Source: a virus | Length of the DNA stretch: 64,000 nt | Virus record (IMG/VR): IMGVR_UViG_3300017991_000049 | Span: 1 to 64,000 of that record | Direction: 5' to 3' (one strand) | Part shown: positions 472-49,271 of the stretch, piece after piece | Position numbering within the stretch: position 1 is the first letter of the stretch | Layout: each line of letters opens with the position of its first letter | Program-made: the position numbers and the translations under genes | Notes under the pieces: generated by a model | What the model was told of the DNA's origin: nothing | Database searches by the model: none | The model's input: the letters and a program-made list of their open reading frames with translations, nothing else

Positions 472-2367
472 ATGTCTTCTGACTCTCCAGTCTTCGACGA
501 ACCGATTGCGCTAGAAGGACTCCTGGCGCAAGCGAAAACAGTGTTCAATCCCGATGAAAACTCTCGAATAACGTCCACCGACCAGGTGGCCGCCTACAAT
601 AAGCTGTTGCGCACAGGCCAGGTAGATACCCTGGCGCACGCGCTACCGCTTATGTTGAACCTCAAGGGTAATCCGTACACCCTGAACGACCACTTTCCTT
701 TCGAGGAAATCTTCCGGTTCCACATGCCGTCGGCGCTGATCTACAAGACCGGCCGGCAGGTGTCCAAATCTACATCTCTGGCAGCGCACGGCGTCGTTAC
801 GTCGATCTCGCTGCCGAACATCACCACGCTGTACGTCATGCCGCTCTTCGAGCAGGTGCGCCGTTTCAGCACGATGTTTGTGCAACCATTCATCGACCAA
901 TCGCCGGTCAAGAAGCTCTGGACGGGCACGGACACCGTGAACAGCGTGCTCCACCGCAGCTTCCACAACCATTCGAAGATGCTCTTCTCGTTCGCGTTCC
1001 TGAACGCAGACCGTATCCGCGGTATTTCCGCGGACAAGATGGCGGTCGACGAAGTCCAGGACATGAACCACGAGCACATCCCCATTATACGCGAAACGAT
1101 GTCGGCAAGCCCGTGGGCCTTCCGACAATTTACCGGAACGCCCAAAACGCTCGACAATACGCTGGAAGCGCTCTGGGGTGAGTCGTCCCAAGCAGAGTGG
1201 TTTGTGCCGTGCATGCACTGCACGACCAACGGCGCGCCGACCTGGAACATCCCCACAATGGAGTTCCACCTGGAGAAGATGATCGGGCCCTACCGCCCAG
1301 ACATCTCCGAGGCGCATCCGGCAACGATCTGCCACAAGTGCGGCAAAGCGATCAGCCCACGCCTCGGCCGGTGGGTGCACAGATACCCTGATCGGATTTG
1401 GGATCAGGCGGGCTATCACGTGCCGCAGGTCATAATGCCGCTGCACTATGCGAAACCTGACAAGTGGGCAGAACTACTTGCCAAGATGGCCGGTAAGGGC
1501 AACACCCCGCTGAACGTGTTCTTCAACGAAGTGCTGGGCGAATCGTACGATACGGCAGCCAAGCTCGTGACGCTGACCGAGATCGACGCGGTGTCAAACC
1601 TTGGCGAGAACACCATCAACGCAGCGCGCGCCCGCCGGGGTATGTACAGCATGGTTGTGCTGGCAGTCGACTGGGGTGGCGGCGGTGAGAAGGGCCTGAG
1701 CTTCACGACGGCTGCCGTGTTGGGTATGCGCCGAGACGGCACCATCGAGGTCATCTACGGCAAGCGCCTGCTGACGCCACACGACCACCTGCGCGAGGCT
1801 CGAGAGATCAAGCAGCTCTGGGAGATCTTCAAGCCCACGATACTGGCGCACGACTACACAGGCGCCGGTGCGCTCCGCGAGACGTTCCTGATCCAGGCTG
1901 GTGTGCCCACGCGGGCCACGATGCCTTGCCAGTACGTCCGCTCGGCGTCGCAGCAGCCGTGCTACCACGTGGCGCCTACGCTGCAGCACCCACGCTCGCA
2001 CTACCGCGTTGACAAGAGCCGCTCGCTGTTGCTCACCTGCGCGATGATCAAATGCCGACGGCTCAAGTTCTTCAACAAGGACCACAATAGCAAGGAAGAC
2101 CCAGGACTCATCTGGGACTTCTTGGCCCTGGTGGAAGACAAGGTCACCACGATGGCTGCGGGCGAGATCTACCGGATCACGAAGCAGCCGGGCTTCACCG
2201 ACGACTTCGCGCAAGCTGTGAACCTGGGATGCGTCGCAATGTGGTATCGCACCCGCAGATGGCCAAAGCTTGACGAGATCGCCGAGTACGCCATCACGGA
2301 CGACCAGCTACGCGCGTCGGTGCCGCAGCACGACTCCGACTGGGACGACGAGCTACTGCCAGGCTAG
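472..2367 (+). CDS. terL: terminase large subunit (ATPase plus nuclease)
   Basis: 631 aa. Walker A-like GRQVSKST, Walker B-like MAVDEVQDM, C-terminal RNaseH-like nuclease region (VLAVDWGGGG). Size and architecture typical of phage TerL. Confidence 0.85.
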   Translation: MSSDSPVFDEPIALEGLLAQAKTVFNPDENSRITSTDQVAAYNKLLRTGQVDTLAHALPLMLNLKGNPYTLNDHFPFEEIFRFHMPSALIYKTGRQVSKSTSLAAHGVVTSISLPNITTLYVMPLFEQVRRFSTMFVQPFIDQSPVKKLWTGTDTVNSVLHRSFHNHSKMLFSFAFLNADRIRGISADKMAVDEVQDMNHEHIPIIRETMSASPWAFRQFTGTPKTLDNTLEALWGESSQAEWFVPCMHCTTNGAPTWNIPTMEFHLEKMIGPYRPDISEAHPATICHKCGKAISPRLGRWVHRYPDRIWDQAGYHVPQVIMPLHYAKPDKWAELLAKMAGKGNTPLNVFFNEVLGESYDTAAKLVTLTEIDAVSNLGENTINAARARRGMYSMVVLAVDWGGGGEKGLSFTTAAVLGMRRDGTIEVIYGKRLLTPHDHLREAREIKQLWEIFKPTILAHDYTGAGALRETFLIQAGVPTRATMPCQYVRSASQQPCYHVAPTLQHPRSHYRVDKSRSLLLTCAMIKCRRLKFFNKDHNSKEDPGLIWDFLALVEDKVTTMAAGEIYRITKQPGFTDDFAQAVNLGCVAMWYRTRRWPKLDEIAEYAITDDQLRASVPQHDSDWDDELLPG

Positions 2368-30822: not shown

Positions 30823-31485
30823 TTAGACGGGCGTCTCGGTGATCCGGTTGGGCGCATTTTCTGGCCCGCGCGGTTCCATCGAGGCTTCGATCTGCGCCAC
30901 GTCGACGCGGTTGTCGTTGCCTGCGAAGGTCATCAGGTACGCGAGGATCTGTTGGTACAGACCGTAAACGCGCAGCGAGTCGTGTCGGGTGATGAACCGC
31001 GAACGCTCGCGCGAGTTGAGTCGCGTCCAGGTTACGATCACTGTGTCGACGGCCGACAACAGGATCCGGCCGTTGCCGCTCATGTTGAGCTGGCTGTTCA
31101 CCGGGATGTCGACGTCCTGGCCCGAGAAGTCCCAAGGGAGTTGGTACATCTGCGTGGCCGGCATCTGGATGTCGTCGCCACCAAACGGATTGGCAGCATC
31201 GGTGATGTCCGCAGTTGCGTCGATCGCCGTAGCGATCTTGTCGCCGAGATCAGCACCGTCTGGGTTATGAGTAACCCGGCGACGCCAGCGATCAGCGTTG
31301 ACAAGCAGCTGCAGAAAATGGTCTCTCGACGGGTCGTCGAGACCGCCTCGGTCGCGGAGATCTTCACTGTGGACAATCTCCGAGCGCAGCAACATCAACG
31401 GCTGCAGACCGGCGGCGATGTGATGGTTTCGGCATTCCGTGATTACGTTACGGAATTGTTCGACGCCAGGGTCACCTACTGGCAT
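30823..31485 (-). CDS. hypothetical protein (220 aa)
   Basis: Overlaps the stop of the upstream protease gene by 10 nt (operon-like). No motif recognised. Confidence 0.5.
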   Translation of the reverse strand: MPVGDPGVEQFRNVITECRNHHIAAGLQPLMLLRSEIVHSEDLRDRGGLDDPSRDHFLQLLVNADRWRRRVTHNPDGADLGDKIATAIDATADITDAANPFGGDDIQMPATQMYQLPWDFSGQDVDIPVNSQLNMSGNGRILLSAVDTVIVTWTRLNSRERSRFITRHDSLRVYGLYQQILAYLMTFAGNDNRVDVAQIEASMEPRGPENAPNRITETPV

Positions 31486-33245
31486 GACTGGTCTCCTTTG
31501 GTGGGAGTTGAATGATAGGTTGCTGCCGGCGCCATTTCATTGAAGCGTCTCAGCAGCGTGTCCTTCATTATACGCGCCCAGTCATTCTCAGGTCCAGAGG
31601 GCTCTTGGTCAATTTTCTTGTCAAGTTCGTCGAGAGTAAGTCGGCCGATAAGTGCATCAAGTATCGGCGAACGTCCTTCGAGCTCCGAAAGTCGTATAAA
31701 TTCCTGTGCTTCCGAGATGTCTCGGGGCACTGTGTCGTGGGTGGGAAACGTATCGGGCTCGGAAGCCCCTCCTTGCCCAGGCGGCGTCACGGGCGGGTCA
31801 ACAGGCGGTACGACAGGCGGATCTGTGGGCGGTTCGATGGGCGTAACAGGCGGCAAATCAGGCAGTTTTGGCGCAGGCTTGCCGCGGAACCAGCAGAACG
31901 CCTTGTAGATACCAAAGCCGAGCGCCAGCAATCCGCCACCACCTGCCGATCCTGTCAGTAGCCACATGAGCGCCTGCTGCACCGACGGCTTTACCATATC
32001 CCAGTTTGACGGTTCGTCCGGCTCGGTTACCGTGGGCGGCGGATCGTTATTTGTCGGCGGCTCTACAGGCGGCGTAACCGGAGGGTCAACTGGCGGCGTA
32101 ACCGGAGGGTCAACTGGCGGCGTAACTGGGGGTTGCACAGGTGGTTCGACCGGCGGCTGTACAGGTGGCGTAACCGGAGGCGTAACTGGCGGTTCAACAG
32201 GAGGTTCAACAGGCGGTTCAACCGGTGGCACCACTGGCGGCACTACAGGCGGTGGCTCAGCTGGCGGCGCAACTGGTGGCGTCACTGGTGGCACTACAGG
32301 CGGTGGCTCGACCGGCGGTGTCACCGGAGGCGTGACAGGCGGCTGTACAGGTGGCGTAACCGGAGGCTCGACCGGGGGCGTAACCGGAGGCGTGACAGGT
32401 GGCGTAACTGGGGGCACGACAGGCGGCTGTACAGGCGGCTGTATTGGCACCAGTGGCGGCCGCGGCTTTGGCGGCTGCGGGTACGGCGGGAGAATGAACT
32501 TCAACAGCGCACGCACACGCGGAAAGTAAGGTCCGCAGCAGCAGTTACCGTCAGTGCCGGTGATCAACCCTACGACTTCACCGCGCGACGTGTAGATCGG
32601 TCCGCCGCTCATGCCGCTGATTGCCGGCCCTCGGAACTCGATGACCGAGAGCGTGCGCCCTTGATCGAACGATAGCCATTTGCTGAACGTCCCCTTTGTG
32701 ACGCGGTATGTAGTATTCATCGCCCAGCCGGACGCCCAATATATCTCGCCTTGCCTGGGCGGGCCTTTTGCGAAGCGCACCGGCTTGATACCCGGATCGT
32801 CGATCTCGACGACGGCTACATCATAGAGATGGTTGTAGCGCAGCATTCGTGCCTTGAGCATCTTGCCGTTGATCAGCGTGACCGTCACAACGGCCCCAGG
32901 CTTGTAGCCATGGGCGCAGGTGATCACGTGCGCTTTACCGTCCTTCTGTGCTGCAATAAAGCCGCTGCCGGCCAGTTCGCCGAATGCTACCTTGACCACC
33001 TGTTCGCAGGGTGGTGCTGCTGGAAGTGCTGGCGGCGCTGGTGCGGCCCAGGACTGCGATGGCGATGCGCGCCATTGGGTTTCGTGCGGCAGCTGCATCA
33101 GCAGCCCGCGGTAATCCTGCCGGCTAGGCGAATTGCGCTCTTCCCAGGGAACTACTTCATAGATGTCTACAGAACGGGGCTGGCCCGCAGCTACGGTTGG
33201 CAGCAGTAGGCATGCCAACAGGCAGAAAAGCGTACAGCATCTCAT
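31476..33245 (-). CDS. secreted trypsin-like (S1) serine protease with Pro/Thr-rich repeat linker, TM helix and C-terminal domain
   Basis: Start at MRCCTLFCLLACLLLPTVAAG (signal peptide); the upstream part of the ORF overlaps tRNA-Ile. Catalytic triad context VITCAHG (His), YDVAVVEID (Asp), GMSGGPIY (Ser). About 130 residues of (PPV[TEQ]) repeats. TM LMWLLTGSAGGGGLLALGFGIYKAFCWF. Confidence 0.7.
   Translation of the reverse strand: MRCCTLFCLLACLLLPTVAAGQPRSVDIYEVVPWEERNSPSRQDYRGLLMQLPHETQWRASPSQSWAAPAPPALPAAPPCEQVVKVAFGELAGSGFIAAQKDGKAHVITCAHGYKPGAVVTVTLINGKMLKARMLRYNHLYDVAVVEIDDPGIKPVRFAKGPPRQGEIYWASGWAMNTTYRVTKGTFSKWLSFDQGRTLSVIEFRGPAISGMSGGPIYTSRGEVVGLITGTDGNCCCGPYFPRVRALLKFILPPYPQPPKPRPPLVPIQPPVQPPVVPPVTPPVTPPVTPPVEPPVTPPVQPPVTPPVTPPVEPPPVVPPVTPPVAPPAEPPPVVPPVVPPVEPPVEPPVEPPVTPPVTPPVQPPVEPPVQPPVTPPVDPPVTPPVDPPVTPPVEPPTNNDPPPTVTEPDEPSNWDMVKPSVQQALMWLLTGSAGGGGLLALGFGIYKAFCWFRGKPAPKLPDLPPVTPIEPPTDPPVVPPVDPPVTPPGQGGASEPDTFPTHDTVPRDISEAQEFIRLSELEGRSPILDALIGRLTLDELDKKIDQEPSGPENDWARIMKDTLLRRFNEMAPAATYHSTPTKGDQSCQ
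31990..32470. repeat. degenerate 12-nt tandem DNA repeats (GGCGGTGTAACC-like) encoding the (PPVT/PPVE)n linker
   Basis: Seen directly inside the protease CDS. The Gly-rich ORFs on the opposite strand are artefacts of this repeat. Confidence 0.8.
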
Positions 33246-33324
33246 CGGGGACTCCTTTGCTGAGAGACGTGCATATTCTCTCATCAGACACCGACGGAGT
33301 GGCGCTGTCAAGATCCTTGGGAAG

Positions 33325-33396
33325 TGGTAGCCCTGTGAGTCGAACACAGCACAGCGCGGTTATCAGCCGTGCTTGGGCAACCGGCCCTCGACTACC
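33325..33396 (-). tRNA. tRNA-Ile (GAT)
   Basis: Acceptor GGUAGUC/GGCUACC. Anticodon loop CUGAUAA with a 4/5 stem. T-arm CUGUGUUCGACUCACAG. Confidence 0.65.
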
Positions 33397-38816: not shown

Positions 38817-39085
38817 TCGTCCTCGACGGCTGATCCGTACTCAACGCGGGGCTCGGCGAATTGGATTCGGGACATTGTGGCGCGCCGCATAAGCTCGCCG
38901 ATAGCCTCTATCCAGTCGGCCTCGCTTGGCTCGCCCGGCATCTCCACTGGGCCGATGCAGTTGTACGTATGCGCGTAGCAGTCGTCGATGTGCGCCTGGG
39001 CCTCCTCCTCCGTATCGAACGTCGAAGGATACCATTCGGTCGACGCACCGCCTTGTTGCACTACGATGTAGATATGGTCACTCAT
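38813..39085 (-). CDS. hypothetical acidic protein (90 aa)
   Basis: ORF; stop overlaps the stop of the plus-strand gene. Confidence 0.45.
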   Translation of the reverse strand: MSDHIYIVVQQGGASTEWYPSTFDTEEEAQAHIDDCYAHTYNCIGPVEMPGEPSEADWIEAIGELMRRATMSRIQFAEPRVEYGSAVEDD

Positions 39086-39369
39086 AATTTCAACCTCTCA
39101 TCGCGGACAGTGGGCGCTGGAGGCACACGATGGCACGGCGAGGCCTCTATGGCCTTCATATTGGCCAGCTTCTCCTCCAGCTTTTTGATCACATGATCAA
39201 TATGTTCACGGCACATCCGTGCGCACTCTTCCTCAGAGGTGCACCACTTGTTCGCACCCTTATACATGCGGGTCACGCCGCCGCGTTCCTTTAGGAACAG
39301 GCAGTGCTTCGTCTCGTGGTCCAAGTGGTACACCTCTACGCGCGGCGCACCCATGTGCGACGCATACAT
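39082..39369 (-). CDS. hypothetical Cys-containing protein (about 95 aa)
   Basis: Start at MYASHMG. Upstream ORF codons are an off-frame read of the acidic-repeat gene. Contains a translated variant of the TTGATC motif (HIDHVIK). Confidence 0.4.
   Translation of the reverse strand: MYASHMGAPRVEVYHLDHETKHCLFLKERGGVTRMYKGANKWCTSEEECARMCREHIDHVIKKLEEKLANMKAIEASPCHRVPPAPTVRDERLKL
39185..39200. promoter_or_regulatory. variant motif TTGATCACATGATCAA, copy 4 (inside the CDS 39082-39369, encoding IDHVIK)
   Basis: Seen directly. Confidence 0.4.
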
Positions 39370-39391
39370 GACGTAGATGCGGGTCGGTTCG

Positions 39392-39586
39392 TCAGTCGTA
39401 CTCGTCGTCGAAGTCATCCTCGTCCTCGTCGTCGAAGTCGTCGTCCCAATCGTCGTCGAAGTCGTCGTCTTCGTCGTCGTCCCAGTCGTCATCATCATCG
39501 TCCGGGTCCACGTCGAAGTCGTCCTCTAGCTCGAAGTCGTCGTCAAGCCTCGGGGACGTTGTGGGTGGGTCTAGGGTCATCGGCAT
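39392..39586 (-). CDS. extremely acidic Asp/Glu-rich small protein (possible DNA mimic)
   Basis: Start at MPMTLDPP, then about 45 residues that are almost all D/E with W/F spacers. Confidence 0.45.
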   Translation of the reverse strand: MPMTLDPPTTSPRLDDDFELEDDFDVDPDDDDDDWDDDEDDDFDDDWDDDFDDEDEDDFDDEYD

Positions 39587-39809
39587 TTTGAATCTCCTTG
39601 AATTCCCTGGGCAGCCTGGCAAAGGTTCGGAGCGCGAATAACACCAACAGCGCCAAGGCCGTGTGTGTACACGTCTTGTCGCTGCCCGCAATCCACAAAC
39701 CGACCTGAACACCAAACAACCCAATCGTTGCCAGAATGAGCAGCAGGGACTGTATGACAGGCACCGTACATAGCTCACCGATTATCGAAAGCGTTTTCGG
39801 GGGCTGCAT
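39543..39809 (-). CDS. small membrane protein (2 TM)
   Basis: 88 aa. TM segments LLLILATIGLFGVQVGLWIAG and ALALLVLFALRTFA. Confidence 0.4.
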   Translation of the reverse strand: MQPPKTLSIIGELCTVPVIQSLLLILATIGLFGVQVGLWIAGSDKTCTHTALALLVLFALRTFARLPREFKEIQNADDPRPTHNVPEA

Positions 39810-39819
39810 GGCGCCCTCC

Positions 39820-40359
39820 TTACGAATCAGAGATGAACCCGCGATGCTCGTGGAGCATCTCGGTCACGGGTAGTATTTCTTCAAGACCAGCCAGTTGGCG
39901 CTTCATCCTGCGGTCGTAGAGTACCACGTTCACAGCAGCTGCCAGGTTCAGGCAGTGGGCGGCCGGTATGGCCAGGAACCGGTGACAATGACGCAGAGTG
40001 ACAGAACCTAGGCTGCCGTCCTCCGGACCGAACACGTAGAGCGCGTTCTCCGGATGTTCAAAGGTCGTAAGCAGCTCGGACGACTTGTTCAGCTCGACAG
40101 CCACTGGCGTAACATCGCCGTTGTACCTGTCGAAGAACCGGTCATCGTTGATGATCTGTACGTCCTTGTAGCCTTTCATGCGCTCTTCGCGCGGAAGGCG
40201 ATAACCCTCATGCGGCTCAAGGGGCACACGGTCCCCTGTGAACCACAATTGGGTTGCGCCAAAACAGGAGCACGCACGAAGCGTGGATCCCACGTTATGC
40301 GGAAACTTCGGCCGGATCAGCGCAACTGCCGGCGTCACTCCCTTCGGAGGGCGCTTCAT
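39820..40359 (-). CDS. SpoU/TrmH-family RNA 2'-O-methyltransferase (SPOUT)
   Basis: 179 aa. Motif 1 PHNVGSTLRACSCFG, motif 2 YVFGPEDGSL, motif 3 IPAAHCLNLAAAVNVVLYD. Confidence 0.8.
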   Translation of the reverse strand: MKRPPKGVTPAVALIRPKFPHNVGSTLRACSCFGATQLWFTGDRVPLEPHEGYRLPREERMKGYKDVQIINDDRFFDRYNGDVTPVAVELNKSSELLTTFEHPENALYVFGPEDGSLGSVTLRHCHRFLAIPAAHCLNLAAAVNVVLYDRRMKRQLAGLEEILPVTEMLHEHRGFISDS

Positions 40360-41164
40360 CGTTTACCTCGTTGTCCGTGGTGGCCATGGCCGCAACAGCT
40401 CGGCCTTCCTGCTCAAGCTGCGCCCGCTCCGTTGCCGACAACGGGGTGTGTACTGGCAGCGTGCACGCCGCATCGATCAGCTGAATCGCCAACCTGACGT
40501 TCTCATCGACGGGCGGGTTGCATCCGGGATGCGTATCACCGGCCATAGCCAACACTGAGAAATGCGACTCTCCGCTCAGCATGTACCGATAAGCGTAGCG
40601 GATCGCGTCCACGGCGGCTGGGATCGCCAGCGTCGGCAGCTGTGTGTTGACCAGCGTGCTCCACGGGTATTGGAGCGGCCGGCCGCCTGGTGACAGCAAT
40701 GTGCGCATGCCGGCAAACGACATGTTACGGCGGGCGTCGCCCTCCCATGGCGCTGTGCGGAACAGCATGTGTGCGGCGATTTTGCCCGGCACACGGATGG
40801 CACGCAAAGCAGCCACCGTCTTACCGAGATTCTTGTTCCACGGGTCCGTCGGATGCCGCACGGCGCCGCCAACGTGGATCGACGGCGTGCCTGTGGCGTT
40901 TTCAATGTCGGACTGCAAGAAGAACGCCAGGCCGGCCGTAATCTTCACGGTGGTGCGCCCACGGCCGCTGGGCATCAGGCCGTTGATATTATCGAATTTG
41001 CCCAACGGCGCGCTATAGACGGGCTGCATGTACCGGATGAACAAATGCTTGCCGAACGACTTCTCCTCGACGTGCGCTAGCGCCCGGCGGCACAACTCCG
41101 TAATGTCCGCCTTTGTCTTGGCAGTCTCCAAGCCGGTACGGACGATTTCACCTAGATCCGTCAT
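40295..41164 (-). CDS. hypothetical protein (289 aa); a TGT/DpdA-like fold is speculative
   Basis: ORF adjacent to the SpoU methyltransferase; no confident motif match. Confidence 0.5.
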   Translation of the reverse strand: MTDLGEIVRTGLETAKTKADITELCRRALAHVEEKSFGKHLFIRYMQPVYSAPLGKFDNINGLMPSGRGRTTVKITAGLAFFLQSDIENATGTPSIHVGGAVRHPTDPWNKNLGKTVAALRAIRVPGKIAAHMLFRTAPWEGDARRNMSFAGMRTLLSPGGRPLQYPWSTLVNTQLPTLAIPAAVDAIRYAYRYMLSGESHFSVLAMAGDTHPGCNPPVDENVRLAIQLIDAACTLPVHTPLSATERAQLEQEGRAVAAMATTDNEVNDEAPSEGSDAGSCADPAEVSA

Positions 41165-41251
41165 GGATCTGACCTCCTTATTCGTAGTGAAAACCCGCCG
41201 CCCCGAAGGGGCGACGGGCCACCGTGCGGGTTCAGGACACGGATGAGTGTG

Positions 41252-42190
41252 TTACTGAGTCGCGGGCGCGTGTCGAATGGTTTCGATCGACTCCCGCATC
41301 ATAGCGGTGTTCATCGTGGCCTGGTTGATCGCCTCGTAAGGCATAATGAAGACCACGTTGTTCTCGCCCTTGGCCATTTCGGTGGAGACGTTTTCCATCA
41401 CCTCCATCTGGCGCCACGATAAGTACGATGGCGTCAGCGACTTGGCCAAGATACCGTTTTCGTCCGCCTGGGCTTGCGCCCGGATCATACGGACTTTTGC
41501 CAATTCCGTTTCTATTCCGGCCCGCCGTTGTGCTTCCGCCATTTCGGCCTCAGCCAGGGCTGCCTTCCGTTGATCTTCCAGCTCGGCATTCTTGATAGCG
41601 TTCCGTTGCTGGATAACGACCGGCGGATAGTCGATGTTGGAGACCAACACCGCCGATACGTTCAGCGGGTACTTCAGCGCGGTCAGTCGTTTGCGTACGT
41701 CCGCCGATAGATCCGCCTCGATCTTCAATCTGTTAGGCCGGATGTCATCGGTTTCGTACGTGCTAACGATATTGCGCGTTGACGATCGAATGATGTCCCG
41801 AACGGTCATCTCGTAGAACTTGTCCAGAGACAGCTCGTGTCCGGCTACCTCAGAGCCGTCTGCTGTCTTAATCGCCGGAACTTTCTCCTTGATGAACTCG
41901 ATCGAATCTTTGTCGACCTGGAACGACAGCACGGCCTTCGTGTCGACGTCCATGTTGATATCGTCCGTACAGAGAATCTTCAGCGTCTCCTTGTACGACT
42001 TCAACTTCTGGTCAACGAAGTACAGCCGATCGCGGCCGTAGGCCTTGTACACGCCCTCGCTGACGATGGTGCTCTCACCGCTTGGGTGGAGGATGATCAC
42101 CTTCTTTCCAGGAGGCACGACGCTTCCCATGCACCCGGTCAGTGTCATCACGAAACACGCCAACAAGCTAATCAGAATCAACCTCTTCAT
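41252..42190 (-). CDS. SPFH/band-7 (stomatin/prohibitin-like) lipoprotein
   Basis: Lipobox LTGC after the signal peptide MKRLILISLLACFVMTLTGC. Central SPFH-like region and Ala/Glu-rich coiled coil (AALAEAEMAEAQRRAGIETELAKVRMIRAQAQADENG). Confidence 0.65.
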   Translation of the reverse strand: MKRLILISLLACFVMTLTGCMGSVVPPGKKVIILHPSGESTIVSEGVYKAYGRDRLYFVDQKLKSYKETLKILCTDDINMDVDTKAVLSFQVDKDSIEFIKEKVPAIKTADGSEVAGHELSLDKFYEMTVRDIIRSSTRNIVSTYETDDIRPNRLKIEADLSADVRKRLTALKYPLNVSAVLVSNIDYPPVVIQQRNAIKNAELEDQRKAALAEAEMAEAQRRAGIETELAKVRMIRAQAQADENGILAKSLTPSYLSWRQMEVMENVSTEMAKGENNVVFIMPYEAINQATMNTAMMRESIETIRHAPATQ

Positions 42191-42622
42191 CGCTCTTCGA
42201 CTCCTTTCGGTCCTTGAAGAACTGCTCTCGGAAGTCGCCGAGATTTTCCATCTTCTCTTGCTGGATCTCGGTGCCTTCCTTCCGGATCTCCTCCTTGCGG
42301 GTCTCCGGGTTATTTTGGCCTTGGAATAGCTGGCCAGGCTCCACCGACTCTTCCAAAGTGCCGGTAGGGTCTTCCTTCGAGCTGGGGATCACCCAGCCCG
42401 TCATGACGAACGCCAGTCCCCATAGGATCAGGATCCCTATGAGCACTGGGCCCATCAGACTATGCACCCACTCCCGAATCTGCTCAACGGCCTCGATGGC
42501 GTCCTCGTCACCTTCGGCACGTCCGCGCATCCATTTGAGCGCCAGCTTGGTCAGCAATACTGCGATAAGCCAGCACGCCAATAGGATTAGCAGCCCGAAC
42601 AGCAGGCTAGTCCTTACTTCGA
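42168..42622 (-). CDS. membrane protein, possible NfeD-like partner of the SPFH protein
   Basis: GTG start with AAAGGAGG RBS. Two TM helices (LLFGLLILLACWLIAVLL, VLIGILILWGLAFVMTGWVI). Directly downstream of the SPFH gene. Confidence 0.4.
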
Positions 42623-43458
42623 CTGGTGGCACGCTTGCCTCCTTTCTTGCGGTCAGTCTTGATACGCCGGTATTCGCGCTGATCGCGCTTCCGCCGTTGG
42701 TTATGAAGCAGTCGGCCCGGACGCCCTCCGAGGGCGCGTCGTACAGGATCTGCAAGTTGCTGCCGCATTAGCCACTTGCGCATCGCTGTCCAGGTTCCCC
42801 ACTTCATTCGTTTGCACTGCTCGCGCAGTGCCCACAGGTCGTCGACAGTCAGCCATTTGTAGTCGTCGGATTTATGGGTTCGATGGGCCTGGATCATTCG
42901 GCGGAATGTGCTGGGACGTGCCTGCCGAAACATGTATCGTGCCTCATCCAAATGCCGTAGAACTAGCTTGCTGATGTCGTCGCAACTCTGGCCGATGTCT
43001 TCCCAAGGGTACTTCGGCCTGTCTGATTTGAAGACGGCATTGCCTTTCAGCGCCGTCACTATGCCGTTGTTGGGGCACCACCGCCCGACCACGTGCGTAG
43101 TTGTGGTCGGCCAAGTCATCATGCCCGGATCGGTCGTCAGCATCTGTAAAGCAACGCCGACGCCGAACGGCTGCGCCCACGAATCCGACAACGTGACGTC
43201 GCGCGAGAACGCTGCCGAACTGATGTACTCGGATTTCTCCGGGCAAGCTATCCGGACCACCCCTCCCTCGAAAGGGAGAGGAAAGTCCGGATATGTTGTT
43301 CCGTGCAGCTTCAGCGCCAGCTCGTCGGCGGCATCGATAATGTGCTCGTCCACAGACGGCTCGTGGCGTAACCGCCCGGGGTCGTTTTCTCGCACAGCCC
43401 TGTTGATTACCCCGGCACGGCCGGTTGGATCACAGCTGTTGACCAGCAAAATTGACAT
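42607..43458 (-). CDS. hypothetical protein (283 aa), basic C-terminus
   Basis: ORF in a co-directional run. No motif recognised. Confidence 0.5.
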   Translation of the reverse strand: MSILLVNSCDPTGRAGVINRAVRENDPGRLRHEPSVDEHIIDAADELALKLHGTTYPDFPLPFEGGVVRIACPEKSEYISSAAFSRDVTLSDSWAQPFGVGVALQMLTTDPGMMTWPTTTTHVVGRWCPNNGIVTALKGNAVFKSDRPKYPWEDIGQSCDDISKLVLRHLDEARYMFRQARPSTFRRMIQAHRTHKSDDYKWLTVDDLWALREQCKRMKWGTWTAMRKWLMRQQLADPVRRALGGRPGRLLHNQRRKRDQREYRRIKTDRKKGGKRATSRSKD

Positions 43459-44078
43459 TGTTCGCAGTGCCTTTTCGGTTTGATACCGTTCTCAGCGGGA
43501 CACACCAAGCATCCATTGATCTTCTTCACGATAGTATCCCGTTTGACCCTGAAAACCAAGTCGCAGTAGTCAGGCACTGATTCGCCGTGTTCGCATTGCA
43601 TATAGCAAGAGCGGATCCCGTCGACCGGAGGCACACCATCGATGGAGTGCGTGATCTTGTCGCAGGAAAACCACAGGTGGAAGTTGTCCACGTTGGCTAG
43701 GTCGATGAGAGCGTCGAGCAGCTTGGCTCGGCGCCATGACCGTGTATATGCATAGAACGTCACGTCTGGGCAGCCTTGCGCGATCTGAATCCACTTGCGG
43801 ATGTAGGGCGCGCTGTAGAAATCGCCGGCAACGTGTACTCGTAGTATCTTCAACTCCAGCTGTCTGATCTCGTCGATCATCTTCTTCACGAAGTCGGGCT
43901 CCTTGGACGCGTCCCAGTTGCGCTGATGCGCAGCAGTGACGTTCGTCATCCGAAAGAACCCATTCGTGGCATAACAGTCAGATTCGCATACCTCGGTTCT
44001 ACCTGGGCAGGTCTCTACAGCCAGGATAGAGAAGCATGGAACCTCGCCAAGCTTTGAGTTGCCTGGTCGGATCAGCAA
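43407..44078 (-). CDS. Cys-rich protein, DUF5131 (phage Gp37/Gp68)-like
   Basis: N-terminal cluster CPGRTEVCESDCYA resembles the DUF5131 N-terminal Cys motif; additional CxxC pairs follow. Confidence 0.4.
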   Translation of the reverse strand: MLIRPGNSKLGEVPCFSILAVETCPGRTEVCESDCYATNGFFRMTNVTAAHQRNWDASKEPDFVKKMIDEIRQLELKILRVHVAGDFYSAPYIRKWIQIAQGCPDVTFYAYTRSWRRAKLLDALIDLANVDNFHLWFSCDKITHSIDGVPPVDGIRSCYMQCEHGESVPDYCDLVFRVKRDTIVKKINGCLVCPAENGIKPKRHCEQCQFCWSTAVIQPAVPG

Positions 44079-47564: not shown

Positions 47565-49271
47565 CTAGTTAAGTTCGGGTTGCGCGGCGGCTGCGGCTCT
47601 TGTTGTCGAGACCTTGCGGCTGGCGCGCGAACGTGTGGTGTCCTGCACTTTCTCGCCGTTTACCGGCTCCGTCTTATCTTGGCAGAACTTGCGGATCGCT
47701 GCAATGTCCTCAGCGTTGAGCCGGGCAACCGGGGTGATACCCTTGGCGGCTACCAACAGCTCGTCGATGGTCGGACGTACGGCATCAGCGTCTGGCATCT
47801 TGCCTTTCTTGCTGCCACCTGCTTCCCAGGTCGTCATCCGGTCGTCGTAGGCATTGCTACGCGCGGCGATGATGATTTCCTCCAGTTCGGCGCCAGTGAA
47901 CTCGTCGGTCTTGTTGACCACGCGGCTCAGCGTCTTTTGATAGACGGCTGGATCGATCCCGCGCTTGTTCAGATGAATCTGCAGGATCTCCAGGCGCTCG
48001 TCCTTATCCGGCAGATCGGTGGACCAAACGCAGTCGAAGCGGCCGGCGCGCAGAAGCTCACCAGGTACGCCCGTCGTGCGGTTCATCGTCACCATGACGA
48101 ATACACGGTTGTCGGAGTCGACGCCCATGTCCCGCTCGGATAGCCAGTTCAGGAAGTAGCTCAGCACGCGCGAGGCCACACCGCTGTCTGCGGCCTGATT
48201 CTCATGCGCACCACCGAACGCCTTGTCGATCTCGTCGACCATGAGCAAGGCGTTGGGCATGGCGGCTACCATCTGGAGCGCTGTCCTGATCTTGGCCTCG
48301 GAACCGCCGACGTACTTGTCGAACATAGATCCGATGTCCATAAGCACCAGGTCCAGCCCCATCAGCTTGGCTGCTGCCTTGGCTACGAGCGTCTTGCCGG
48401 TACCAGGCGGACCGATTAGCACCGAGCCGCGAGGCTTCTCCATGTTGAGCGATTCGGCGTGCCTGGTGTAGGCACGACTACGACAGCGCAGCCACTCCAA
48501 GAAGTTCTTGAAGCCGCCGATGACGCCCTTGCCGGGGATCGAGGCGTTGGGGATGTAGGTCAGCCCCTCCACCTTGCGGATGACCTTCGCCTTCTCTGCG
48601 GCGATGATATCCATGATCTCGTCGGTGATGCCGCCGCAGGTCGCGATGGCGTAGGCAAAGATACGCTGCGCTTCTTCGGCAGTACAGCCGAGCAGCGAAC
48701 GTGTGATCTTCTCTTCCATGTCCTCGTCGCACGCAGCGCCCTTCGACCCCTTGTTGCCCTTCTGGACAGAGTCGAGGATGAAGTCCACCACGTCGGCCTT
48801 CATCTCGTCGTAGCGCGGCAGCTGGAAGTCGATGACGTCACAATACTCCGAGATATCGGGGTGCGGCGTCGGCGTAGTTGCGATGATCACGATCGGGCGC
48901 GTGGTCTTGTCGTTGCTCAGCGCGTTGGAGATACAAAGCTCGGCCAACGTGCGCCGTAGCGCCAGATTACTCGGGCCACCGCCATTGAGATACGATCCAA
49001 GATCCTTCATTAAGACTAGGCCATGGCTGGCGATCTTGTCCCTGACGGACATCAGTGCCTTAACGGGGTCAGTAAGCTTGGCATCCCAGCTGGCGCCTGC
49101 AACGCAGTTCCAACTGTACCAGCGCAGATCGGTATCGCTCTGTTCGGTGTAAGCGTGGGCGATGCTCTTGAGCGTGCGTTCGGCACGGCCCTCATCGCCG
49201 GACAAGTACACCCAGATCACGCTGGACCCGGAGTCGATCTTGTCCATAAACGATTGTGTAAAGCTAGGCAT
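47565..49271 (-). CDS. AAA+ ATPase (classic AAA clade) with about 280-aa N-terminal domain
   Basis: Walker A GPPGTGKT, Walker B LLMVDEIDKA, sensor/arginine-finger region RAGRFD. Confidence 0.8.
   Translation of the reverse strand: MPSFTQSFMDKIDSGSSVIWVYLSGDEGRAERTLKSIAHAYTEQSDTDLRWYSWNCVAGASWDAKLTDPVKALMSVRDKIASHGLVLMKDLGSYLNGGGPSNLALRRTLAELCISNALSNDKTTRPIVIIATTPTPHPDISEYCDVIDFQLPRYDEMKADVVDFILDSVQKGNKGSKGAACDEDMEEKITRSLLGCTAEEAQRIFAYAIATCGGITDEIMDIIAAEKAKVIRKVEGLTYIPNASIPGKGVIGGFKNFLEWLRCRSRAYTRHAESLNMEKPRGSVLIGPPGTGKTLVAKAAAKLMGLDLVLMDIGSMFDKYVGGSEAKIRTALQMVAAMPNALLMVDEIDKAFGGAHENQAADSGVASRVLSYFLNWLSERDMGVDSDNRVFVMVTMNRTTGVPGELLRAGRFDCVWSTDLPDKDERLEILQIHLNKRGIDPAVYQKTLSRVVNKTDEFTGAELEEIIIAARSNAYDDRMTTWEAGGSKKGKMPDADAVRPTIDELLVAAKGITPVARLNAEDIAAIRKFCQDKTEPVNGEKVQDTTRSRASRKVSTTRAAAAAQPELN

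Follow-up and report, generated by a model that had tools for sequence, protein, structure and literature searches.

A two-gene locus in a large tailed phage pairs an SPFH-family lipoprotein gene with the gene for a small two-helix membrane protein that is not NfeD

Background

Structures of the SPFH cages (HflK/C, prohibitin, stomatin, flotillin and erlin) have been solved only recently, and what dictates their choice of client and partner is not yet settled. Here we describe a locus of two overlapping genes, one encoding an SPFH/Band-7 lipoprotein and the other a small protein with two transmembrane (TM) helices, referred to below as the partner, at positions 41,252–42,622 of the IMG/VR virus record IMGVR_UViG_3300017991_000049. 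Positions 1–64,000 of that record were analysed, and this whole stretch of 64,000 nucleotides is called the window. An earlier note made from the sequence had compared the locus to bacterial stomatin–NfeD operons. We are modestly inclined to read it as a bicistronic envelope module of a large tailed phage, in which a periplasm-facing, lipid-anchored SPFH ring is served by a dedicated inner-membrane partner.

NfeD is the only class of SPFH partner described in the literature consulted (PMC2636767, PMC13086221). PMC2636767 links NfeD to the subfamilies SPFH1, SPFH2 and SPFH5 and found no NfeD homologue for two others: HflK/C, which faces the periplasm, and the prohibitin-like SPFH4 (‘prokaryotic prohibitins’), for which the same orientation is presumed. 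The characterised QmcA-YbbJ cage faces the cytoplasm (PMC2636767, PMC13086221). SPFH genes have also been reported in T4-like and RaK2-like phages, where their function is poorly understood (PMC1524935, PMC7760394). A prophage island of Pasteurella multocida encodes PM0222, an HflK/C-like SPFH protein that exits the cell in outer-membrane vesicles and signals via TLR1/2, suggesting an envelope location (PMC9872710). The window protein is likewise encoded on phage-derived DNA; the function studied for PM0222, host inflammation, is uninformative for an environmental phage.

Results

Organization of the two-gene locus

Both genes lie on the minus strand, with the partner gene 5′ of the SPFH gene. 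Translation of the partner gene (42168–42632) gives 154 amino acids from a GTG at 42632–42630 to a TAG at 42170–42168, and the GTG, 5 nt past the ribosome-binding site (RBS) AAAGGAGG (42638–42645), is backed over an upstream TTG by alignment with homologues. The SPFH gene (41252–42190, 312 amino acids) begins with an ATG that follows, at a distance of 10 nt, the RBS AAGGAG (42201–42206) located within the 3′ end of the partner gene, and the two open reading frames (ORFs) overlap by 23 nt (42190–42168). Downstream of the SPFH stop codon, and ahead of the next gene's RBS and ATG, RNA folding (centroid structure) revealed a terminator-like, GC-rich hairpin of 12 bp, GCCCGUCGCCCC UUC GGGGCGGCGGGU, followed by UUUU (41190–41219, minus strand); a consensus terminator scan did not report this hairpin, whose T run is only 4 bases. 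Judged from this arrangement, the two genes most likely form an operon-like, co-transcribed unit, and their translation is probably coupled. The earlier observation of an SPFH lipoprotein gene next to a membrane-protein gene was therefore confirmed in part: a GTG-initiated ORF with an RBS and two hydrophobic helices is present as described, whereas the position assigned to it, downstream of the SPFH gene, has to be reversed because both genes are on the minus strand, and the end given for the locus, 42622, falls 10 nt short of the GTG codon.

The SPFH protein is a predicted lipoprotein of a divergent SPFH subfamily

The SPFH protein matched Pfam Band_7 (PF01145) with E 4.1e-14 and, over residues 1–277, the PHROG family phrog_200, ‘lipoprotein’, with E 1.9e-32 (113.8 bits). 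The Band_7 alignment covers profile positions 2–175 of 176 and places the core domain at residues 24–216 (41543–42121), and the score in this check, 53.5 bits, lies above the gathering cutoff of 23.6 bits. A large protein collection contained 130 homologues at E ≤ 1e-3, with PF01145 on all 120 of those listed. The N terminus, MKRLILISLLACFVMTLTGC, consists of a basic n-region (MKR), a hydrophobic core and then the lipobox L-T-G-C at residues 17–20, which fits the pattern [LVI][ASTVI][GAS]C; together these form a lipoprotein signal peptide of residues 1–20 (42131–42190). Across 36 aligned homologues, residues G19 and C20 of the lipobox are retained by 90% or more. The identification of an SPFH/Band-7 lipoprotein with the lipobox LTGC, made in the earlier note, is borne out by these matches, and the protein is predicted to be lipidated at Cys20. 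The residue at position +2 after this Cys is Met in the window protein and Gly in most homologues, not Asp. In one homologue (locus L011) an uncleaved N-terminal hydrophobic anchor replaces the lipobox and no Cys is found at that position, which fits a membrane-tethered, periplasm-facing protein. The SPFH core starts about 8 residues past the predicted lipidated Cys so that, if anchored there, it must lie flat on the membrane, on the periplasmic side.

An AlphaFold2 (AF2) model built from the 36-homologue alignment, with a predicted local distance difference test (pLDDT) score of 84.5, shows a mixed alpha/beta core followed by two helices, which DSSP places at residues 190–251 and 254–273. The first of these, 62 residues long and rich in Ala and Glu (41438–41623), would in this model be the counterpart of the coiled-coil wall segment of SPFH cages. 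Foldseek against the PDB returned prohibitin, HflK/C, stomatin, erlin, QmcA and flotillin at probability 1.00, the best matches being full-length cage subunits of prohibitin (8rrh and 9o9z, E ~2e-12), with HflK/C (9cz2, 7vhq and 7wi3), stomatin (9z7u) and the QmcA-YbbJ cage (8z5g_A, E 3.4e-8) among the others. Prohibitins 1 and 2 (PHB1/PHB2) were also the nearest PDB proteins by sequence, at an E of only ~4e-3. The protein thus resembles prohibitins in its best sequence and structural matches and differs from them in that the sequence similarity is marginal; the passages of PMC2636767 that were searched make no mention, for SPFH4, of a lipoprotein anchor or of a conserved two-TM partner. The window protein belongs to a divergent SPFH subfamily and, by analogy with these relatives, may assemble into a ring or cage. 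NCBIfam and PADLOC scans of the SPFH and partner proteins gave only a chance-level match to Csn2 (E 0.016).

The structural matches also raise the alternative of an HflK/C mimic, in which a periplasmic SPFH ring captures or fences the host FtsH, or some other membrane protease that has a periplasmic domain, and retunes the turnover of host membrane proteins during infection. As in E. coli HflK/C, a long helix comes after the SPFH core (full-length Foldseek matches at E 6e-12 to 1e-10) and the SPFH domain would lie in the periplasm directly beside its membrane anchor; cages of HflK/C with FtsH (9cz2, 7vhq and 7wi3) are among the best structural matches, and many of the homologues, among the matches listed, carry the Joint Genome Institute (JGI) label ‘regulator of protease activity HflC’. 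The predicted anchor is a lipidated Cys where HflK/C has an N-terminal TM helix, identity to HflK/C is ~15–17%, and the best sequence matches are the prohibitins, themselves distant at ~4e-3. HflK/C (SPFH3) consists of two adjacent paralogues that form a hetero-oligomer, whereas the window and all the related loci have a single Band_7 gene at this site. The gene linked to it encodes a small two-TM protein, no FtsH-like gene is linked, and the AAA protein encoded nearby has neither a TM segment nor an M41 peptidase domain. We regard a mimic of this kind as unlikely, and it is a sub-case of the envelope-module reading more than a contradiction of it.

The nearby AAA protein is a 568-amino-acid AAA+ ATPase (47565–49271, minus strand; Pfam AAA 3e-24, phrog_8638 2e-93) whose gene is syntenic with the SPFH region in the related locus L001. 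It was considered as an FtsH-like client and rejected on its missing TM segment and peptidase domain.

The partner is a two-helix membrane protein of a small unannotated family

The partner has two TM helices (TM1 at ~10–28 and TM2 at ~59–77) separated by a basic loop of ~30 residues, followed by a disordered linker (79–108) and an acidic helix (109–148), with a conserved N107 and a DFR..FF motif in this C-terminal part. Its AF2 model contains helices at 4–38, 43–78 and 109–148 and no beta strand, the TM hairpin having a pLDDT of 82–88. Taken together, the N-terminal segments of 17 partners contain 4 Lys or Arg residues, their inter-helix loops (17–39 residues) contain 100, and the first 15 residues past TM2 contain 35. 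Applied to these counts, the positive-inside rule indicates that the topology is most likely N-out/C-out, with a tail of 62–85 residues (~75 in the window protein) in the periplasm together with the SPFH domain.

The partner had no match in Pfam, PHROG, NCBIfam or PADLOC beyond Pfam noise, and a tblastn search with it found no match in 50,697 phage records. In word-indexed searches the single sequence recovered 2 proteins and a 17-sequence profile recovered 5; the true size of the family emerged from an exhaustive hidden Markov model (HMM) search of 1.84 billion representative proteins alone, which gave 46 representative clusters at E ≤ 1e-3. All 46 representatives are 121–180 amino acids long and match over nearly their full length, with no fusions. 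Alignments divide the family into two subgroups that share the conserved Asn and a terminal aromatic-basic motif, and the window protein conforms to the traits of the family as a whole (120–180 amino acids, two TM helices, a basic loop and an acidic tail that bears the Asn and the motif, with the gene directly 5′ of one for an SPFH lipoprotein). This is a small unannotated family that is conserved with lipoprotein-type SPFH proteins.

The partner is not NfeD

The earlier comparison to stomatin–NfeD operons would make the partner a short NfeD that contacts the SPFH protein through a C-terminal oligonucleotide/oligosaccharide-binding (OB) fold, on the model of QmcA-YbbJ and FloA-NfeD. The resemblance behind this comparison is real at the level of gene arrangement. 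As in the SPFH–NfeD operons (QmcA-YbbJ, FloA/FloT-NfeD and PH1511-PH1510), a protein of ~150 amino acids with N-terminal TM helices is encoded in an operon with the SPFH gene (a 23-nt overlap here, and the pair in 16/16 loci), its size is comparable to that of E. coli YbbJ (152 amino acids), the partner is probably a dedicated co-subunit, and the SPFH model matches the QmcA-YbbJ cage 8z5g_A in structure (E 3.4e-8). The gene order, partner first, is the reverse of qmcA-ybbJ. In B. subtilis the NfeD gene comes first.

The protein itself is a different one. The Pfam NfeD profile (PF01957) matched none of 17 partner-family members, the window protein included, at E ≤ 1, while the positive control, E. 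coli YbbJ, matched it at 3.5e-12 over residues 94–148. An hhalign comparison of a 37-sequence partner-family profile with YbbJ gave a probability of 0.5%. The earlier note had named a missing NfeD OB fold as a refuting result, and the AF2 model does lack this fold, a linker and a single helix taking the place of the OB barrel, with no beta strand where the barrel would be expected. The two systems would also occupy opposite sides of the membrane, the lipoprotein SPFH being predicted to be periplasmic and NfeD-linked SPFH proteins being cytoplasmic, and this is consistent with the lack of an NfeD homologue for the HflK/C and prohibitin-like subfamilies in PMC2636767. The partner is not NfeD, and a genuine stomatin–NfeD operon is the least credible of all the alternatives considered here. 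What stands of the earlier comparison is a dedicated small membrane protein encoded in an operon-like unit with an SPFH gene; the NfeD identity of that protein does not.

The gene pair is conserved and co-diverges across unrelated neighbourhoods

A single-sequence scan of IMG/VR with the SPFH protein gave no confirmed relatives, and an alignment-based scan was needed to find them. Exact look-up and alignment-guided scans yielded 17 related loci, 16 of which include the upstream DNA. They come from metagenomic contigs, the longest of 472 kb, from viral contigs of IMG/VR, from contigs of metagenome-assembled genomes (assigned to Kiritimatiellota, Lentisphaerales, Victivallaceae, Desulfobacterota and others) and from the complete chromosome of Lentisphaerae bacterium WC36. 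At every locus whose upstream DNA is covered (16/16), the SPFH gene is immediately preceded by a two-TM ORF of 120–166 amino acids that has a charged tail, and jackhmmer unites 15 of the 16 with the window partner as one family. A pairing seen at every one of the 16 loci is more than chance. The neighbourhoods themselves are unrelated. The close relatives L001 and L013 share the order GP88, ~280-amino-acid protein, partner, SPFH protein, ~300-amino-acid protein and SpoU, while the pair is surrounded by kinases, an epimerase and NAD-salvage genes in L002, and adjoins an ion channel gene in L003. In L012 and L008, on Lentisphaerota chromosomes, its neighbours are housekeeping genes (DnaG, Asd, Obg, IspG, an M50 peptidase and MraZ), none of them a phage gene. 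The closest chromosomal SPFH copies are those of Lentisphaerota and Kiritimatiellota, at 42–47% identity.

The two genes also diverged in step. Across 14 loci, the pairwise identities of the SPFH proteins and of the partners were correlated with a Mantel r of 0.87, a value reached in 0 of 5000 permutations, indicating that the two genes have moved as one unit. Divergence is far quicker in the partner, whose mean identity across loci is 19%, compared to 50% for the SPFH protein. Such co-divergence is expected of interacting proteins and is not proof of contact.

In two loci the SPFH gene is split into overlapping or adjacent ORFs, of 77 + 231 amino acids in L012 (5986–6901; Lentisphaerae WC36, CP085689.1) and of 79 + 228 amino acids in L017 (5819–6771), the upstream partner ORF being intact in both. 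The split could reflect a frameshift, a pseudogene or a sequencing error.

The chromosomal copies bear on a further alternative, a spanin- or holin-like module for lysis or disruption of the envelope, acting either as a periplasm-bridging pair at the end of infection or through a class II holin-like two-TM protein. Several features of the gene pair would suit it in a phage context: a membrane-protein gene followed by a lipoprotein gene in overlapping frames, as in overlapped two-component spanins, a +2 residue that is not Asp and would direct the lipoprotein to the outer membrane in E. coli, and a charged C-terminal partner tail with a helix, probably in the periplasm. The lipoprotein, however, is a 312-amino-acid SPFH scaffold and not a short proline-rich o-spanin, and the partner has two TM helices where an i-spanin has a single N-terminal TM domain. 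Lentisphaerota chromosomes carry the cassette amid DnaG, Asd, Obg, IspG and similar genes rather than among phage genes, and the flanking ORFs scanned (~37.6–53 kb of the window) matched no Pfam or PHROG family of lysis proteins such as endolysins or holins. A lysis function of this type is accordingly very unlikely.

Large phages carry SPFH lipoprotein genes and, in several cases, an analogous pair

The window element is a large tailed phage, because the window encodes a terminase large subunit (472–2367, plus strand; phrog_675, 4e-57), the clearest phage marker in it and one of its few plus-strand genes, because a partner 99% identical to the window's is encoded on a 226,656-bp contig, and because the IMG/VR contig 3300010413_000009 is a close relative. 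The earlier note had considered phage-encoded SPFH proteins uncommon, which the existence of phrog_200, the cases in the literature and the following counts contradict. The SPFH subfamily of the window matched 20 isolated phage records, including the jumbo Pseudomonas phages PA1C, PS119XW, Psa21 and D6 as well as pf16, ACP17 and others, at 25–29% identity over 85–95% of the window protein's length, and BFVD contained 29 viral SPFH models at E ≤ 1e-3. One of the phage homologues is annotated as ‘prohibitin family protein’. Like the window protein, the phrog_200 phages show the profile match and a lipobox in all (VVTGC, AMVGC, LLAGC and LLAAC among the isolated-phage homologues), and several have an upstream two-TM ORF; unlike them, the window subfamily is nearer to the chromosomal genes of Lentisphaerota and Kiritimatiellota.

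A small two-TM ORF lies directly upstream of the SPFH gene in PA1C, pf16, Psa21, D6 and vB_PseuGesM_254, and these ORFs are shorter, at 85–116 amino acids. In pf16 an annotated phage promoter precedes the small two-TM gene and an annotated terminator follows the SPFH gene. The partner-family HMM had no match among the small upstream ORFs of isolated phages, and therefore a similar architecture, not homology, is claimed for them.

An exported lipoprotein encoded by a phage outside the structural gene blocks, with homologues that are patchy among unrelated large phages as is typical for accessory genes, could also serve superinfection exclusion or receptor masking, altering the envelope against further phages as T5 Llp and Cor do. 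Known receptor blockers are small single proteins, simpler than a scaffold of the SPFH kind with its obligate partner; the pair shows no similarity to known exclusion proteins and has no PADLOC match, and the cassette occurs as a chromosomal bacterial gene pair outside a prophage context. We consider exclusion quite unlikely as the function of the locus.

A proposed envelope module

In the envelope-module reading that we favour, the partner would sit in the inner membrane as a two-helix hairpin with both termini outside, exposing an acidic tail of ~75 residues with a terminal helix. The SPFH protein would be exported, lipid-anchored at Cys20 and laid flat on the periplasmic face of a membrane, where lateral assembly through the SPFH core and the 62-residue helix could give a ring or half-cage and so fence off a membrane patch, an assembly proposed because of the analogy with HflK/C, prohibitin and stomatin. 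The partner would be positioned in or at this fenced patch, with its periplasmic tail docking onto the ring, as a dedicated small membrane co-subunit with an NfeD-like role and an unrelated sequence and fold. The module may be native to some diderm bacteria, given the Lentisphaerota and Kiritimatiellota chromosomes that carry it, and large phages appear to have taken it from diderm hosts or exchanged it with them. In the phage it would presumably organise or stabilise the host envelope during infection; the candidate roles are envelope stabilisation, membrane-protease control, phage exclusion and lysis timing. The data establish the gene structure, the SPFH membership, the lipobox, the lack of NfeD features and the conserved, co-diverging pair, while lipidation, topology, ring assembly, contact between the proteins and a role in infection are inferred.

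Several observations weigh against this proposal. Neighbouring genes are unconserved beyond close relatives, and joint inheritance of the two genes alone can yield the Mantel correlation. Among seven annotated distant phages the upstream two-TM ORF is present in five and absent in ACP17 and Boevelstad, and the upstream ORFs of the distant isolated phages have no detectable homology to the partner family of the window. The partner model, built from six sequences, is of moderate confidence (pLDDT 65.6), and the partner topology is a prediction from charge counts. Contact between the SPFH protein and the partner is a proposal, and no client protein, such as a protease or a channel, was identified. 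Under the E. coli sorting rules, the non-Asp residue at +2 would send the lipoprotein to the outer membrane, where the pair would bridge the envelope instead of forming an inner-membrane ring; this location and geometry may apply, although the sorting rules of the host may differ from those of E. coli.

The vault-like protein is not linked to the gene pair

The earlier note had also pointed to a major vault protein (MVP) in the same genome, and this part was correct: an MVP-like protein of 845 amino acids (19617–22154, minus strand) matches MVP_shoulder at 7e-23 and Vault_3 at 4e-9. Among the 50,697 phage records it has counterparts only in the huge uncultured phages LR756500 (462 kb) and LR756501/503 (735 kb), at 39% identity, and a 65%-identical copy is present on the IMG/VR contig 3300010413_000009. 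The suggestion attached to it was a shared membrane-association theme, in which the SPFH pair would act with the vault-like protein, for example as its membrane docking site. Both genes do occur together in the window and in 3300010413_000009, the SPFH model does match an MVP structure at the fold level (9z4w_3, E 1.9e-6, Foldseek rank 38), and eukaryotic vaults were recently seen on membranes (PMC13100048). The two genes are nevertheless ~19 kb apart with many genes between them, and hhalign of the SPFH profile against the window MVP protein gave a non-significant probability of 0.4%. The MVP protein, which has no signal peptide, would be cytoplasmic and the lipoprotein periplasmic, in different compartments. 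The association also fails outside the close relative 3300010413_000009, the only one to share both, which synteny alone suffices to explain: the huge MVP phages LR756500/501/503 had no match for the window SPFH subfamily, and neither the SPFH-carrying isolated phages nor the bacterial chromosomes with the cassette showed an MVP match. A functional link is highly improbable, and the finding has no bearing on the vault-like module. Taken as a whole, the earlier interpretation is supported in part, with the SPFH call right and its NfeD, rarity and vault parts unsupported.

A Ro60-like protein of 580 amino acids (54288–56030, minus strand; TROVE 1e-39, Ro60 vWA 3e-52) is also encoded in the window. 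The vault protein TEP1 likewise binds RNA through a TROVE module, and the Ro60-like and MVP-like genes together suggest an RNA-protein particle module.

Neighbouring genes and other features of the window

The pair is flanked on the minus strand by genes for a 283-amino-acid protein (42607–43458) and a 289-amino-acid protein (40295–41164), for which no significant Pfam, PHROG or PADLOC match was found. In L001 and L013, both close relatives, a homologue of the 283-amino-acid protein is visibly conserved beside the pair; the ~300-amino-acid ORF downstream was compared by position and size only (L001), and neither flanking protein was seen in more distant loci. Two genes upstream of the pair is a 223-amino-acid GP88 protein (43407–44078, minus strand; PF17338 3.5e-38, also DUF7227). 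GP88 is a phage protein family without an assigned function.

Further from the pair, all on the minus strand, a 623-amino-acid protein (31476–33347) with a Trypsin_2 peptidase domain (2e-17) has a hydrophobic stretch at its N terminus and is possibly an exported or periplasmic phage-encoded protease; its gene is ~8 kb away from the SPFH pair, with no link shown between them. A 669-amino-acid protein (57517–59526) combines family-9 (heptosyltransferase-like) and family-2 glycosyltransferase domains and may serve the phage in modifying the envelope or lipopolysaccharide. The region 39082–39778 contains ORFs with long low-complexity runs, in which two reading frames compete as the real gene: a 138-amino-acid ORF (39082–39498) with a Thr-rich N terminus and, overlapping it, a 128-amino-acid ORF (39392–39778) with an Asp/Glu-rich tail.

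Conclusions

The SPFH protein described here belongs to an already-known family, and what remains is a conserved, unannotated partner family for lipoprotein-type SPFH proteins. More tentatively, and with doubt prevailing, this two-TM family could be an undescribed partner class for periplasm-facing, lipid-anchored SPFH proteins, a periplasmic equivalent of NfeD, forming with them a cage or an inter-membrane bridge in diderm bacteria that large phages deploy for envelope remodelling during infection. If true, a second, unrelated partner family that strictly accompanies a periplasm-facing SPFH lipoprotein would offer a simple two-gene system for studying how SPFH rings are nucleated and what they contain. 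The pair gives a testable handle on phrog_200, an accessory family common in large phages, and the tractable phages PA1C and pf16 carry an analogous pair.

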